64,000 nt of DNA from Bacteroidaceae bacterium (GCA_963657885.1 CAVKNZ010000003.1:4134-68133); one strand, 5' to 3'. Shown: positions 46,279-55,259, counted from the first letter of the stretch. A program made the numbers and translations. The notes: a model not told the origin generated them from the sequence alone.

Positions 46279-46308
46279 TTGAAATCTTTTGATTGCAGCA
46301 GTTATAAT
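46279..46308 (+). promoter_or_regulatory. Promoter TTGAAA-N18-TATAAT, with the -10 box 6 nt upstream of the yqeG ATG
   Basis: TTGAAA at 46279-46284 and TATAAT at 46303-46308; the ATG is at 46315. No SD. The -35 box overlaps a weak A/T hairpin at 46273-46290. Confidence 0.55.
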
Positions 46309-46314
46309 TAGATT

Positions 46315-46854
46315 ATGTTCAAGCGATACATTCCTTATGCCTATGCAAAAAGCATTTACGAAATTGATCCTCAGTTTTTTCTAAAAGAGAATGTTAAATA
46401 TTTATTTCTTGATTTAGATAATACGCTCGATTCATATAAACAAAAATTACCAAATCCGGAAGCCTTTAAATTAAAAGAAAATATTGAAAAACTTGGAATT
46501 AAAATTTACATAATTTCGAATAACACTGGTAAACGTGTGAGTTTATACGCTAATAAGCTCGAAGTTGCTTATCTAAATTCTATTGGAAAACCTTTTGCAT
46601 TTAAGATTAAGCGATTCTTAAAAAAGAACAATATTAACCCTAATGAGGTCATGATGGTAGGGGACCAACTTATAACAGATATTGCTATGAGCAATAGAGC
46701 TAAGATAAAATCTATTTATGTAGAAAAGTTAGTTCGTGAAGATCAAATAACTACTAGATTTAATCGAATATTTGAAAAGCCGGTCAAACGCTACCTCAAA
46801 AAGCGAAACTTATTTACTAATTGGAAGGAGAAACTTTATGGCGGAGATAAGTAA
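46315..46854 (+). CDS. yqeG: YqeG-family HAD phosphatase
   Basis: LFLDLDNTL, ISNN, GDQLITD. Starts the yqeG-yqeH-nadD-yqeK-rsfS cluster, as in Bacillus. Confidence 0.85.
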   Translation: MFKRYIPYAYAKSIYEIDPQFFLKENVKYLFLDLDNTLDSYKQKLPNPEAFKLKENIEKLGIKIYIISNNTGKRVSLYANKLEVAYLNSIGKPFAFKIKRFLKKNNINPNEVMMVGDQLITDIAMSNRAKIKSIYVEKLVREDQITTRFNRIFEKPVKRYLKKRNLFTNWKEKLYGGDK

Positions 46855-49470: not shown

Positions 49471-49498
49471 ACTTCGCATAATCGATATTATGTTAACC
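49471..49498 (+). other. dif: dif, the XerC/XerD chromosome-dimer resolution site
   Basis: ACTTCGCATAA-TCGATA-TTATGTTAACC matches both E. coli dif and B. subtilis dif at 21/28, with the inner CATAA/TTATG dyad intact. It lies in a non-coding gap at the strand-orientation switch. Confidence 0.8.
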
Positions 49499-49614
49499 AA
49501 AGTATGATTAAAATCGATAATATCTAATCTTTTATTATTACAATGTTTCGTTCAATAATTTTAATGCACCATCTTTAAATGATGTTTTCCACCAAAAATT
49601 TGTGTATAAAAACT

Positions 49615-49641
49615 ACTAACAAACTACTAATTTTAAATTAT
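49615..49641 (+). repeat. Phased pentamer repeat, copy A2
   Basis: ACTAAcaaactACTAAttttaaATTAT is 24/27 identical to copy C. It lies 117 bp right of dif and 15-18 nt upstream of the next ORF start. Confidence 0.75.
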
Positions 49642-49655
49642 GAGTTATACTAGCG

Positions 49656-50135
49656 TTGATGAATATTACCATTACCGGCGTTCTTGTTTCCTTACTATTA
49701 GCCATTCTCTTATTGCCGCGCTTTATCTATTTTATGATCGTCAATAAACGTCAATATCCAAAAGAGTTATTTTCAAAGCAATATTTATTTTTGTTTATTT
49801 TAAATTTCTTTTTATCGTTAACTCTTGTTGCTCTTTCATTATTCTTTTCTACGTCTTTTAATAGTCTTGGTCTATTCTTTGTTTGGCTATTTATTACTTT
49901 AACAATGCTCTTTTTAGCGTTGCTTATCTTAGTTATCTTTATGATGAATGGCTACAATCCTTATTTTCAATTTAAAAAGATGTTACTTCCAATTCCTATC
50001 TACTTCATCGAAGCTATAGCAATTGTTTTAACATCATTACTATCGAACAATTATTATCTTCTTATCCCTGGATCAATCTATTTATTTACTTCCTTTATTT
50101 GGAATTATAAAGGTTATTTACTATTGAGAAATTAA
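49656..50135 (+). CDS. Hypothetical polytopic membrane protein (~159 aa)
   Basis: Four to five long hydrophobic segments. Start is TTG at 49656 or ATG at 49659, with no SD. It converges on the permease gene with a 4-nt overlap. No family recognised. Confidence 0.5.
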   Translation: MMNITITGVLVSLLLAILLLPRFIYFMIVNKRQYPKELFSKQYLFLFILNFFLSLTLVALSLFFSTSFNSLGLFFVWLFITLTMLFLALLILVIFMMNGYNPYFQFKKMLLPIPIYFIEAIAIVLTSLLSNNYYLLIPGSIYLFTSFIWNYKGYLLLRN

Positions 50136-50923
50136 TTTGTTGCTTTTGTTTTCTTGGCCTCTTTATTTAGCCTATTTTTCGCAAAATAAATAACAATATC
50201 GATTACGCCGATTATAAAGATGGCGATTAAAGAATAAGCTAAAATGCTTACCATATCGACAGTTGTTGAGGCATCACGAATCAACTTTCCTAAGCCTTCA
50301 GCGGAGTCGCTACCCGCTAAAATTTCACTCATAATCGAAACTTTCATGCCTAAGCCAATGCTAGAGGCAATGCCTAAGGCAATATAGTTACTTGATAATG
50401 GTAAATAAAATTTAAATACTGATTTAATAGTTTTTGAACCATCTATTTTTAAGGCATTTATTAAATTAGGATCAATATTTTTAAAGCCAGAAACTACGCT
50501 TTCATAGATTAATGGAAAGGTAATTAAGAAAACGACAATTATAGGAGCGTATTTTGGTTTTAATAAAGCGATGATTATAAATATAACCGCGGCTGTTGGT
50601 ATCGTTTTTAAAACGATGACAAACGGTTTAAAGAAAAGATAAAAATTTTCAAATAATCCGGCTAATACACCAAAAATTAGTCCTGTAACAATACTTAAAG
50701 CGATGGCAATTACAAGTCTTAACAAGGTTCCTCCAATAGCTAGATATGTTTTTTCTTTGCCTAATACGATAAAGAATTCAGGAAATACTTTATCTGGACC
50801 AGGAAGCAAAGTCGTATTAGCTAGTAAAGATATGAGCCACCACAATAAAAAGACCCCAATAATCCCTAACAAAGAGTAAATTAACACTTTGTGTTGATCA
50901 TAGAGGTCTTTTATTTTATTCAT
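50132..50923 (-). CDS. ABC transporter permease (binding-protein-dependent, NitT/TauT/ThiX-like)
   Basis: 263 aa with ~6 TM helices and an EAA-like loop (INALKIDGSKTIKSVFKFYLP). Confidence 0.75.
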   Translation of the reverse strand: MNKIKDLYDQHKVLIYSLLGIIGVFLLWWLISLLANTTLLPGPDKVFPEFFIVLGKEKTYLAIGGTLLRLVIAIALSIVTGLIFGVLAGLFENFYLFFKPFVIVLKTIPTAAVIFIIIALLKPKYAPIIVVFLITFPLIYESVVSGFKNIDPNLINALKIDGSKTIKSVFKFYLPLSSNYIALGIASSIGLGMKVSIMSEILAGSDSAEGLGKLIRDASTTVDMVSILAYSLIAIFIIGVIDIVIYFAKNRLNKEAKKTKATN

Positions 50924-51909
50924 AATGAAACAAAATAGTTGTCAGCAAATGTTTCTGAACCAAGTTTAGTTAAAAATGCATTAACATCAACGCTTTGAGA
51001 AGGCGAAAGTAAACCAAAGCCATTTCGTCCATCTTTTTGAACAGCTTTAACGACATTGGCGTTGAAGCCAAAACGTGAAACTTGTTCATCGAGAGTCCCA
51101 TAAGCATTCATGGTTTCTGAGACAGCATCAGGGTTAGTTATGGCTAACTGAATTGATGAATCTAAATGCGTAATAAATTCTTTTAGTTTTGCTTTTTTCT
51201 TTTCAATAGCGTTATTGTGCACGAATAAACCAGCTTGAGCGATTCCATCTTGGCCGCTGTAGGCTTTCCATTCTTCACGTATATTTCTTACGATGTGAAC
51301 TTTCCCATATGTTTCTGCACTTTTATTGTTCATTACCGCAGTTAATGCTGGCTCAGCGATAAAAACATAGTCAACAACGTCTGTTCCTTGCTTTCCAGTT
51401 TTTAAAACTGCTTGCGCTTCAGTTACGCTAGCCACGTATTTTGCGGTATTTTCGATTTTCCAGTATTCTTTGCAAAGTGTCGAATAAACTTTATCTGGAT
51501 TTAAATTCTGACCAAAAGAATAGACAACATCGCCTTCTTTTGGAAGAGGATAATTGCCTTCTTTGTCGGGAGTTTTTGTACTTTTTTCATTGTCAATGCA
51601 GGCGAGATAGAAATTGCCGGCAGTGATAATTTTAGCTAATTTGTAATTAGCATTATTCTTTTTGATGCTAGTTAAACCATTAACGGCATCGAAAACTACT
51701 GCATCGTAGTCATTTTTTTGAAGTTCAGCAGCAACATTTGTTGGGACGCTGTTGGTTGTGTAATTTACATTGCTTCCTTGATCGTAAAAGGCTAATGCTG
51801 GCGCACCAGTTGGTGTAATGAAATTGATCTCACTATTGTCTTCATTGTTAGCGTTACAGCTAGCAAGCAAGATAACGCTAAATGATAAACATAATATTTT
51901 CTTAATCAT
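50920..51909 (-). CDS. ABC transporter substrate-binding lipoprotein
   Basis: Signal peptide with a lipobox (ILLASC), then a ~300-aa periplasmic-binding-protein-like body. Overlaps both the permease gene and deoB. Confidence 0.7.
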
Positions 51910-53098
51910 TTAAAAGTTCCTTTATAACTTCTCCAATTTGATTGGGTGATTTTTTCAAAGAAAAGTTCTTTAAAATAGTTGCACCGATGTCGGCAAATGA
52001 ATTTCTTTCTTCTAGATAACGTCCATGTTTAAATGACTTTGAATAACATAATAATGGCACTTTTTCACGAGTGTGATCGGTTCCTGTATGAGTTGGGTCA
52101 TTTCCATGGTCTGCAGTTACCATGAGTAGATCATCATCTTTTAAGACATTAATTAATTCACCTAATCTAACATCAAATTCTTCTAAGGCTTTGCCATATC
52201 CGAGTGGATTTCTACGATGACCATATTCGGAGTCAAACTCAACTAGGTTAACATAACATAAACCTGTAAAGTCGTGATTCTTAGCTTCATCGATAGTTTT
52301 GTCCATGCCATCCATATTGCTGACCGTTTTTTGTGTTTTAACAACACCGACTTGATTGAAAATATCGCCGATTTTTCCGACGCAGCTAACCATGTAGTTA
52401 TTATCTTGAAGAATATTCATAACAGTAGTACCGCTTGGTGAAACAGCTATATCGTGTCTATTTGGTGTTCGCTTGAAATTTGTTGGATCGGTTCCAACAT
52501 ATGGTCTAGCAATAATCCTTCCAACGAAATATTCCGGTTTCATGCATATTTCTCGAGCAATATCGCAGCATCGATATAATTCTTTAACGCCTGTAACTTC
52601 TTCGTGAGCAGCTATTTGTAATACGCTATCAGCACTAGTGTAGACAATTAATGAATTGTCGCGCATTTGTTCAGAACCTAATTCTTTAAGAATTTCTGTT
52701 CCGCTTGCAGCTTTATTGCCGATGACTTTATGACCAGTTTTTTCTTCTAATTCATCGATTAAAGATTTTGGAAATCCTGTATCGGTAAATGTTTGGAAAG
52801 GTTTGGTTGTATAAATACCCATCATTTCCCAATGTCCGGTCATCGTATCTTTGCCAGCGCTGGCTTCTTTTAATCTCATGCAGTAGGCATTAGGATGATT
52901 TACTTTGTTTGTGCCTTTTATTGGTGCTAAATCGCCTAATCCTAGTGAATTCATGACAGGAACATTTAAGCCTCCACAACGTTCAGCAGTATGAACTAAT
53001 GTATTGGCTCCAGTGTCATCAAATTTAGCAGCGTCAGGCATTTCGCCAATACCTACTGAATCGGTAACAATGACAAATATTCTTTTAAATTTTTTCAT
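51902..53098 (-). CDS. deoB: Phosphopentomutase
   Basis: [50 protein letters not shown]. Confidence 0.95.
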
Positions 53099-53140
53099 TT
53101 AATAATTGGCCTCCTTGAAAGAACCGATAATTATATTATC

Positions 53141-54013
53141 TTATTTTCTTTTTGCATACAAATCATAAGCACTGAGTATACGTTTGGTTGATATATTTGT
53201 ATATATTTGCGTCGTGGCAATATTTACGTGCCCAAGCATCTCTTGTACAGCGCGTAAATCAGCGCCATTTTCAAGCATATGAGTAGCAAAGCAGTGCCTC
53301 AATGTATGTGGCGATATATTTTCTTTGATTCCGACTTGTTCTGCGTATTTTTTGATTTGCTTAAAAAAGTACTGGCGAGATAAACTCTTCCCGTAACGGT
53401 TGATGAACAAATTTTGGCATGCACGATGATGCTTTTTTCTTACATCGATATATTGTTTTAAATAATCTCCGGCATATTCGCCGAATGGCACTTTTCTTTC
53501 TTTATTGCCTTTTCCGACGACGTGAATAATACCTTTTTCAAAATTTACTTGGGAAAGTTTTAAAGATAAAAGTTCGCTTACACGTAAGCCTGATGAATAC
53601 ATAACTTCTAACATCGCCTTATCGCGCAGACCTTCTTCTTTTTCGATATTAGGAGCGCCTAAAAGTTTTTCAACTTCCTCGATTGAAATCGCAAGTGGCA
53701 ACTTTTTGATGCTTTTTGGCGTTTCTATTTTTTGAGGCTTTATGTTGATAATTCTCTCTTTTTCTAAGAAATTATAGAAATTTTTTGTCGATGATAATCG
53801 ACGATAAATTGTTGATGTAGACAAAAATTCCTTGTTTTGGATTCGCATAAAATCGGAAATGTCGGTCGACAAAAAATCGTTTGTGTCTTGCTTTTTTAAA
53901 ACAATAAAAAACTTTTTTAAATCGTAATAGTAAGATTTAATTGTGTCGTTACTAACACCCTTTTCTACTCGTAGGTATTGGAAATATAAATCAAGTGCAT
54001 CATCTAATTGCAT
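53141..54013 (-). CDS. xerD: Tyrosine recombinase XerD
   Basis: HTLRHCFATHMLENGADLRAVQEMLGHVNIATTQIYT carries the R-H-R-Y catalytic set, and the GADLRAVQEMLGH string is typical of XerD. Adjacent to deoB, like B. subtilis ripX. Confidence 0.8.
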   Translation of the reverse strand: MQLDDALDLYFQYLRVEKGVSNDTIKSYYYDLKKFFIVLKKQDTNDFLSTDISDFMRIQNKEFLSTSTIYRRLSSTKNFYNFLEKERIINIKPQKIETPKSIKKLPLAISIEEVEKLLGAPNIEKEEGLRDKAMLEVMYSSGLRVSELLSLKLSQVNFEKGIIHVVGKGNKERKVPFGEYAGDYLKQYIDVRKKHHRACQNLFINRYGKSLSRQYFFKQIKKYAEQVGIKENISPHTLRHCFATHMLENGADLRAVQEMLGHVNIATTQIYTNISTKRILSAYDLYAKRK

Positions 54014-55206
54014 TTTTTCTTACCTTCCTTTAAAACATCTCGTGCTGTTTTGAAAACATCTTTATTCATCTTTCTATTTAGCTCGGCAATGAGCAGTTTT
54101 GTTGCGTATTTCTCTTTAATTTCTTCAAAGTCATCAAAAATTGATAGCTGAATTGGCGCCTCAGCTTTATCTATGAGATTTTGTAATGTGACTCCAACTA
54201 GTCTCACATAGACATTCTCATCATAGTTTTTATCTAATAATTCAATTGCAGCATCGATAATTAACTCGTAATCATTTGTTGGCTCTTTCAACGCTTTTGA
54301 GCGATTAATTACATTGAAGTAATTATCTTTTAAAACAATTTGTACTGTTTGCGCTAGTTTATCAGCTTCTTTTGCTTTGTTTGATATATCTTTTGCTAAC
54401 GCTTTTATATTTCTTACCAATTCATCGTAGTTATTGCTATCCTCTTTCAATGTGTGGCTTTTTCCAATGGACTTGGGATTGAATGGTTCTTGATTAACTT
54501 CATCATCTCCTTTGCCGTTTAGCCAATCTTTGATGACTATGTAGAATTTTCCAAGTTCTTGTTTAACTATTAAATCCTCATCATCAATTTTCTTTGATAA
54601 ATCGCCGATTGTATTTATGCCTAATTCTTTTAATCTAGGTGCGGTTTTCTTACCAATTCCATAGAATGATTCGATATTTAAATGATCGAGCATCTTATGA
54701 ATATCACGTTTTCGAATGATAGTTATTCCCATAGGCTTTTTGTAGTCGCTGGCCATCTTGGCTAAAAATTTAGTTGGCCCCACTCCGATTGAACATTTAA
54801 GCTTTGTTTGTTCAAATAAGTTTCTTTGCATGTCAAGAAAGTATTGGTTCACATCTGTGATATTTTTTAGTTGCTCGCTCATGTCTAAATAACATTCATC
54901 AATTGAAGCCTGCTCAATTTTATCTGAATAATGTTTCATAAAGGCTATGAATTCATTAGATTTTTGTTCGTAATAGTTATAATCACCAGGAATTATTATG
55001 GCGTTTGGACATAATTTTGTAGCTTTAAACATTGGCATTCCGCTAGAAACGCCGTATTTGCGAGCTTCATAAGAACATGTAGAAACAATTCCTCCTCGGC
55101 CTTCATGACCAATTAAAATTGCTTTATTTTCTAATTTTGGATTTTTAATTTCTTCGCAGCGAACAAAAAAGGCATTTAAATCGACGTGAAGAATTACCTT
55201 GCTCAT
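54004..55206 (-). CDS. dinB: DNA polymerase IV (Y-family)
   Basis: ILHVDLNAFF, SCSYEARKYGV, SIDECYLD, GIGKKT. Its 3' end overlaps the xerD start by 10 nt. Confidence 0.93.
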   Translation of the reverse strand: MSKVILHVDLNAFFVRCEEIKNPKLENKAILIGHEGRGGIVSTCSYEARKYGVSSGMPMFKATKLCPNAIIIPGDYNYYEQKSNEFIAFMKHYSDKIEQASIDECYLDMSEQLKNITDVNQYFLDMQRNLFEQTKLKCSIGVGPTKFLAKMASDYKKPMGITIIRKRDIHKMLDHLNIESFYGIGKKTAPRLKELGINTIGDLSKKIDDEDLIVKQELGKFYIVIKDWLNGKGDDEVNQEPFNPKSIGKSHTLKEDSNNYDELVRNIKALAKDISNKAKEADKLAQTVQIVLKDNYFNVINRSKALKEPTNDYELIIDAAIELLDKNYDENVYVRLVGVTLQNLIDKAEAPIQLSIFDDFEEIKEKYATKLLIAELNRKMNKDVFKTARDVLKEGKKKCN

Positions 55207-55226
55207 AAAACTAGTTTATTAAAACT

Positions 55227-55254
55227 AAAACTAGCATTCAATATTATGTTAACC
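55227..55254 (+). other. Degenerate dif-like site (XerD arm and half the centre identical to dif; XerC arm not conserved)
   Basis: AAAACTAGCAT-TCAATA-TTATGTTAACC. The 17-mer ATATTATGTTAACCAAA at 55241-55257 is identical to 49485-49501, on the same strand. It lies in the 53-nt dxs-dinB spacer. Confidence 0.55.
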
Positions 55255-55259
55255 AAAAG

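Follow-up and report, generated by a model that had tools for sequence, protein, structure and literature searches.

Besides its part in recombination, XerD has since 2021 been credited with unloading SMC at XerD-only sites; it is not known to repress its own operon. The Escherichia coli protein binds its dif half-site on its own. Repression of a recombinase gene by its own product occurs in transposons: the resolvase of Tn3 and gamma-delta, a serine recombinase, represses its gene by binding res over the promoter. XerD-specific sites (XDS) in Bacillus subtilis and Staphylococcus aureus were reportedly studied by Karaboja et al. in Mol Cell in 2021. Such sites lie in the terminus region. In papers citing that work, their role is given as the unloading of Smc-ScpAB (PMC9226527, PMC10945525, PMC11894783), and their layout as an XerD arm, a centre of 5-6 bp and an inverted copy of the inner 5 bp, CATAA (PMC9226527). 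Another group of Xer-related loci are the integrative mobile elements exploiting Xer (IMEX), such as the CTX and TLC phages and the gonococcal genetic island (in part after PMC9226527). In the XerS/difSL and XerH/difH systems the recombinase gene is linked to its dif site, and autoregulation is not described in the papers on them (PMC2965235, PMC5357621). Here, we analysed a window of 64,000 nt, whose numbering is used throughout, from an uncultured metagenome-assembled genome (MAG; assembly G000, 86 contigs, 1.52 Mb). The stretch under study, 49471-55254, extends from a complete dif site to an isolated XerD arm directly upstream of the dinB-xerD gene pair. Comparison with relatives makes it rather probable that this half-site is an XerD-only operator on the dinB-xerD promoter, by which XerD would regulate its own synthesis.

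The window has a GC (guanine plus cytosine) content of 33% and its coding regions read well under translation table 11. We compared it with 20 loci of the same genus (XerD identity 59-79%), with 10 genomes that represent seven further families of this order, and with 80 named MAG loci; beyond the genus, gene order was compared in about 70 further species of this Bacilli order. The relatives are uncultured gut or rumen 'Bacilli bacterium' MAGs with genomes of about 1-1.7 Mb, including Candidatus Fiminaster equi, and several of them had earlier been labelled uncultured Erysipelotrichaceae or Mollicutes.

The dif site and the isolated XerD arm upstream of dinB

The dif site (49471..49498, plus strand) consists of the XerC arm ACTTCGCATAA (49471-49481), the centre TCGATA (49482-49487) and the XerD arm TTATGTTAACC (49488-49498). 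It shows the full dif layout, that is, 28 bp divided 11-6-11, an inner CATAA...TTATG dyad and recognisable arms for both recombinases. Its right arm agrees at 9/11 positions with the E. coli XerD arm, TTATGTTAAAT. The site is present once in the assembly and lies at the terminus, as the cumulative GC skew has its maximum at about 47-49.5 kb. Both recombinases are encoded: xerD within the window, and an XerC/CodV-like paralogue on contig C20 of G000. A search near the latter gene for a corresponding half-site with the XerC arm found none, and no arm copy was present nearby. In 19/20 genus loci dif is located between rsfS and deoB-xerD-dinB (the remaining contig ends before the site), and the same holds for the 10 genomes from the seven other families.

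A 17-mer, ATATTATGTTAACCAAA, which includes the XerD arm of dif (49485-49501), recurs exactly at 55241-55257 on the same strand. This repeat had been noticed in the initial annotation, and we found these two copies and no other in the whole assembly. From base composition, about 1e-3 second exact copies would be expected by chance. If up to 3 mismatches are allowed, the window holds 5 matches to the 17-mer, compared with 0.84 in shuffled sequences. The repeat is thus real and not a chance occurrence. The nucleotides that extend it beyond the 11-nt arm (ATA and AAA) come from an invariant TA at the inner edge and from a conserved CCAAA flank, which is kept genus-wide at both dif and the half-site.

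At the second site, the XerD arm stands alone (55244..55254, plus strand; TTATGTTAACC, or GGTTAACATAA on the dinB strand), within a conserved block at 55238-55255 (TCAATATTATGTTAACCA). We agree with the initial annotation that there is no recognisable XerC arm here. Its further proposal, that a GCAT with 2 bp missing represents the left side of a dif-like site, did not hold: these letters are no relic of an XerC arm. Read on the dinB strand, they give TTGAATGC, which comprises the conserved -35 hexamer of the dinB promoter and one further base, and the left flank is unconserved except for the TTGA of that hexamer. The exact 11-nt arm has a third copy at 52245..52255 on the minus strand, inside deoB, and altogether 4 copies genome-wide, against about 2 expected from base composition. 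Since the deoB copy is not conserved at that place in any relative and the genome-wide count is near expectation, it is probably due to chance.

As had been described, the half-site is situated in the 53-nt spacer directly upstream of dinB-xerD; the gene on its other side is dxs (stop codon 55260-55262), which like dinB (start codon 55204-55206) is on the minus strand. On this strand we predict a -35 hexamer, TTGAAT (55236..55241), which leaves a gap of 2 nt to the arm's inner end and whose TTGA is conserved genus-wide at a fixed offset, and a -10 hexamer, TAAACT (55213..55218), 17 nt after the -35 and 6 nt before the ATG, which reads TAAAAT or TATAAT in relatives. In coordinates that begin with the dinB ATG at +1, the arm extends over about -48 to -38. 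The candidate site is thus found inside the RNA polymerase footprint of its own predicted promoter, and is conserved there.

No Shine-Dalgarno sequence is present at dinB, while AAGGAGG-type sites precede xerD and deoB. The geometry of a -10 hexamer followed by 6-8 nt and ATG is observed upstream of dinB in most genera of the order. Because this geometry recurs across genera and dinB lacks a Shine-Dalgarno sequence, the dinB-xerD mRNA is predicted to be leaderless. A similar arrangement was seen at yqeG (46290-46317), where TATAAT is followed by 6 nt and ATG without a Shine-Dalgarno sequence, whereas the internal genes deoB, xseB, rsfS and xerD have AAGGAGG-type sites. Genes that come first in an operon may commonly be leaderless in this genome.

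Conservation of the half-site in the genus and the order

The gene order in all 20 genus loci is yqeH-nadD-rsfS, dif, (ABC) deoB-xerD-dinB, XerD arm, dxs-xseB-xseA-nusB, with both sites on the same strand and 5.3-6.3 kb apart, and most genus genomes contain exactly two copies of TATTATGTTAAC. A search for relatives that keep this order without the second site gave the opposite result, as the arm was present at this place in 20/20 loci and exact in 19. G001 carries a single outer arm change, which is identical in its dif and its half-site. An alignment of the spacer on the dinB strand (21 distinct sequences) has the form TGGTTAACATAA-TA-TTGAnn, 17 nt, TAAAAT, 6 nt, ATG or GTG. Arm, TA and TTGA together (18 columns, TGGTTAACATAATATTGA) and the -10 block have at least 80-95% identity, with at least 95% per column at the arm; the 17-nt spacer between the hexamers and the dxs side of the arm vary freely. 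The distance from the arm to the dinB start is 37-38 nt in nearly all genus loci and the distance to the dxs stop varies; many species have an intrinsic terminator hairpin that separates the arm from dxs. Several species show stronger conservation of the half-site than of the outer bases in their own dif arm.

Most members of the genus also possess a perfect palindrome, TTCTAT-AAA-ATAGAA, centred on the dinB -10 hexamer (L031, L034, L037, L039, L041 and others). It is missing in G000 and its closest relative L071, and may be a second operator for another regulator.

Two genomes of the genus, G018 and G013, have 4-5 extra same-strand copies of the arm inside the coding regions of yqeH, nadD and dxs. 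These are of the TATATTATGTTAAC type, on the dif strand, and within 8 kb around dif (L033 = G018:C10 3913-11821; G013:C88). Their spacings of 927 and 998 nt are conserved between the two genomes. The amino acids encoded at these places differ from those of G000 (LYYVNK in G018 versus LYFVEK in G000), which suggests selection on the DNA motif itself.

Beyond the genus, the order of rsfS, dif and deoB-xerD-dinB is retained by the about 70 further species and conserved across at least 8 families, and xerD is 1.2-6.3 kb from dif throughout the order. For 56 species with both dif and the dinB upstream region available, we searched the 110 nt upstream of dinB for the XerD arm of the species' own dif. 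The best match was exact in 30 species and had one mismatch in 15, so that a copy with at most one mismatch is present in 45/56 species; two mismatches were found in 9 species and no match in 2. Background windows of 110 nt in the same loci contained an exact own-arm match in at most 2% of cases.

In each species examined the arm is within or beside the core promoter, but its register differs among genera. Its TTAACA is placed as the -35 hexamer, 17-18 nt before TATAAT, in L088, L093, L094, L135 and L138; the arm is in the promoter spacer or abuts the -10 in L090, L091, L128 and L136, lies over the -10 hexamer in L086 and L143, and has the opposite orientation in L125-L127, L133, L134 and L137. 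Species without the arm (L129 and L130) still have good promoters upstream of dinB. In L127, a palindromic double arm, TTTACATAAT-T-ATTATGTAAA, stands directly upstream of the dinB -10 and is the nearest to a two-XerD (XDS-like) site in the set.

At the level of sequence, the outer bases of the half-site co-vary with the species' own dif arm. The outermost arm base, given for dif and then for the half-site, is CC in 27 species, TT in 10, TC in 6 and CT in 2; on the XerD tree, species with TT fall into at least four clades. In L123, dif and the half-site share a rare AAG variant.

Profile searches for Smc (TIGR02168) and ScpA (PF02616) were negative in 41/41 genomes of the order (G000 and 40 relatives) and positive in the control genomes (B. 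subtilis, L. lactis and others). SMC unloading as the function of the half-site, after the XDS model, was rejected on this result. A whole Firmicute order of small-genome gut Bacilli without SMC also raises the question of what organises and segregates the chromosome. LexA (TIGR00498) was not found in G000, nor in 22/24 genomes of the genus. In spite of the missing LexA, dinB is retained, always at the head of the xerD operon. With no SOS repressor for dinB, the promoter carrying the half-site is the only visible control point for DNA polymerase IV (Pol IV).

A probable operator for XerD and competing explanations

Taken together, these observations favour the suggestion in the initial annotation that the isolated arm could act as an autoregulatory operator: the arm is invariant in the genus, it has a fixed register to the promoter hexamers there, and it co-varies with dif. 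In such a mechanism XerD, the protein whose partner on dif is the right arm at a distance of 5.8 kb, would bind the isolated arm at 55244-55254 alone. The arm ends 2 bp from the -35 hexamer TTGAAT, and a bound XerD clamp, which on dif also covers the first bases of the central region, would hinder sigma-A RNA polymerase. XerD would thereby act as a repressor of both its own gene and that for Pol IV, and negative autoregulation would hold XerD at a low and steady level. Steric repression appears preferable to activation because both register and orientation vary and because the armless species keep good promoters. The changing promoter registers and the two orientations among genera likewise fit an operator and not a fixed promoter element.

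If this is true, it would explain a low and stable dose of a recombinase that has one or two chromosomal targets, and it would tie Pol IV expression to the Xer system in bacteria that lack LexA. The lineage may also be viewed as a natural separation of function, as it has no Smc-ScpA and yet keeps an XerD-only site under strong purifying selection on the xerD promoter. A broader proposal, which we offer more tentatively as a possibility, is that in this SMC-less and largely LexA-less order XerD is both the dif recombinase and a sequence-specific transcription factor. Its own level and the level of Pol IV would be set at a leaderless promoter, by way of a half-dif operator that is dead for recombination. 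XerD free of dif would then feed back on the capacity for dimer resolution and on mutagenic repair, and the conserved location of xerD no more than a few kb from dif would belong to the same self-contained module. Full-text literature searches returned nothing on XerD autoregulation or on a promoter link for XerS/difSL, and a 2017 review of Xer recombination is silent on the subject.

Several points weigh against an operator for XerD. The hexamer pair in this genome matches the consensus at only 8/12 positions, below the threshold of the scanner, and was missed in the consensus scan, so that the call of the dinB promoter rests on cross-species conservation; promoter-like scan matches in this AT-rich region occur at chance level. 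The arm itself holds the promoter-like hexamers TTAACA and CATAAT, and part of its conservation could come through promoter function. An arm at -48 to -38 would also fit activation. The arm is lost or present as a weak copy in about 10/56 species, and in the dinB-less lineages L142, L149 and L150 no clear arm was seen upstream of xerD. Finally, the extra arms of G018 and G013 hint at a second, non-transcriptional (chromosome-level) role of XerD in these two genomes.

The last point bears on the explanation that the half-site is architectural, an XDS-like docking site for XerD near the terminus whose overlap with a promoter is incidental. Such a site might serve as an XerD reservoir or landing pad beside dif, help dif synapsis or the hand-over from FtsK, or unload a motor. 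XerD-only sites with a non-recombination role are described for B. subtilis and S. aureus (PMC9226527, PMC10945525, PMC11894783), the half-site is always 1-6 kb from dif, and the 4-5 extra arms of G018 and G013 surround dif on one strand. We nevertheless regard a docking site as unlikely, as the published XDS function has no target where Smc and ScpA are missing (41/41 genomes), most genomes have one extra site only, the XDS layout of arm, 5-6 bp centre and inverted CATAA is absent at site 2, and a docking site would have no need to stay in the polymerase footprint of one promoter in 45/56 species while its register and orientation shift. Quite unlikely, in our opinion, is a promoter element with no binding or regulation by XerD, be it an UP element, an element close to the -35, or a former duplicate of the dif arm that now serves as promoter DNA. 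Although TTAACA and CATAAT of the arm are apparently used as -35 or -10 in several genera, the identity to the species' own dif arm extends over 11-14 nt and includes co-varying outer bases that no sigma-A element requires, and the register to the hexamers shifts between genera and the orientation flips. An activator site for positive autoregulation, with XerD at about -43 recruiting polymerase in the manner of class II activators, would fit the genus, where the arm, with its centre near -43, immediately precedes a weak -35 (TTGAAT, 4/6) and the promoter of the present genome is sub-consensus. We consider it very unlikely, since in other genera the arm falls within the spacer or covers the -35 or -10 hexamer, and may have either orientation, a pattern typical of repressors that allows no fixed activating contact, and since L129 and L130 keep good promoters without it.

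The initial annotation had also considered an IMEX-like architecture, in which the 5.8-kb block was integrated by Xer recombination and left a crippled dif copy as a scar. The likeness is that a functional dif and a dif-like repeat in direct orientation bracket several kb in this genome, and the stretch beside dif (membrane open reading frame and ABC pair) does vary among relatives. However, the deoB-xerD-dinB core is present in every relative examined, in 8 or more families, and no empty dif site was found at any of the loci examined (20 genus, 10 other-family and 80 MAG loci), so that the presence/absence polymorphism expected of a mobile block is not seen for the core. The second site is no complete attachment site, having neither an XerC arm nor a conserved left flank. 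The compositional break looked for at the block borders is absent as well, the GC content being 0.30-0.37 within the block as against 0.31-0.35 on either side of it. Moreover, conservation is stronger at the half-site than in the outer bases of dif's own arm, and the half-site is inverted relative to dif in several lineages and is under purifying selection in its own right. The cargo, as had been remarked, looks like housekeeping genes and includes the recombinase gene, which agrees with our family searches except that the membrane open reading frame and the binding protein have no family match. The IMEX explanation is thus effectively refuted, and a dif site together with a dif-like repeat should not be regarded as sufficient for calling an IMEX.

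Neighbouring genes and comparison with described systems

The six genes of the bracketed block were confirmed as described: a membrane open reading frame, an ABC permease, its binding protein, deoB, xerD and dinB. The first gene of the unit is dinB (54004..55206, minus strand), encoding DNA polymerase IV, whose start codon at 55204-55206 coincides with the conserved N-terminus MSKVILHVDLN. Among NCBIfam Pol IV models, its best match is NF002492 (E 1e-104, 350 bits, under the 399-bit cutoff), and it exceeds the 256-bit cutoff of NF002677 with 272 bits. The xerD gene (53141..54013, minus strand) shares 10 nt with the end of dinB and is provided with a separate ribosome-binding site, AAGGAAGG. 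Its product scores 327.3 bits against TIGR02225, about 2 bits below the equivalog cutoff of 329.6, and passes the PRK00283 subfamily model. Among solved structures, the closest to it is that of E. coli XerD (1A0P, E 2e-53); in the alignment the R-K-H-R-H-Y motifs correspond, with GLRVSEL, GKGNKER, HTLRH, LGH and IYT conserved. Judged from these alignments, the XerD of the window is a true XerD orthologue with intact catalytic residues.

Downstream of xerD on the same strand are deoB (51902-53098, E 1e-165), a gene for a lipoprotein-type ABC binding protein without family match (50920-51909) and an ABC permease gene (50132-50923), identified as an open reading frame and by family search; these three genes are possibly on the xerD transcript. 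The membrane open reading frame (49656..50135, plus strand) adjoins dif, encodes 159 hydrophobic-rich amino acids without family match, and has homologues only in the closest species L071, L072 and L085. The ABC pair is present, absent or inverted among relatives and deoB-xerD-dinB is constant, so that the stretch between dif and deoB (49499-50923) is the sole variable part of the block. The flank adjacent to dif turns over, and no second dif-like site marks an element in it. On the other side of dif, an open reading frame at 47991-49103 matches both NaMN adenylyltransferase and YqeK HD-domain models; this nadD-yqeK fusion is conserved in relatives. In addition, some 'H076xx-L1_cleanbin' records of this Bacilli lineage (L071, L072, L086, L104 and L118) are titled Coriobacteriaceae, Lachnospiraceae, Alistipes shahii, Oscillospiraceae or Bacteroides uniformis, which look like taxonomy mislabels in public records.

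Compared with the XDS of B. subtilis and S. aureus, the half-site is similar in having a bona fide XerD arm without an XerC arm in the terminus region near dif, where XerD presumably binds without recombining. It differs in number, with one extra site here and about 8 XDS; in its left flank (AGCAT TCAATA / GCATT CAATA), which offers no CATAA partner at 5-6 bp; and in its location on the core promoter of xerD's own operon, in an order without Smc-ScpA. Linkage of the recombinase gene to its dif is shared with XerS/difSL and XerH/difH (PMC2965235, PMC5357621) and is unusual for two-recombinase XerC/XerD systems. The present locus differs from those systems in that it belongs to a system of two recombinases, XerC and XerD, whose dif is the canonical 28-bp site and whose xerC gene is unlinked, and in that the element on the promoter is a separate half-site and not dif. 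The nearest parallel to the regulation proposed here would be the resolvase of Tn3, as in both cases a recombinase would double as its own repressor. In the transposon, the operator is the recombination site, whereas here a chromosomal tyrosine recombinase would act through a separate, recombination-dead half-site.

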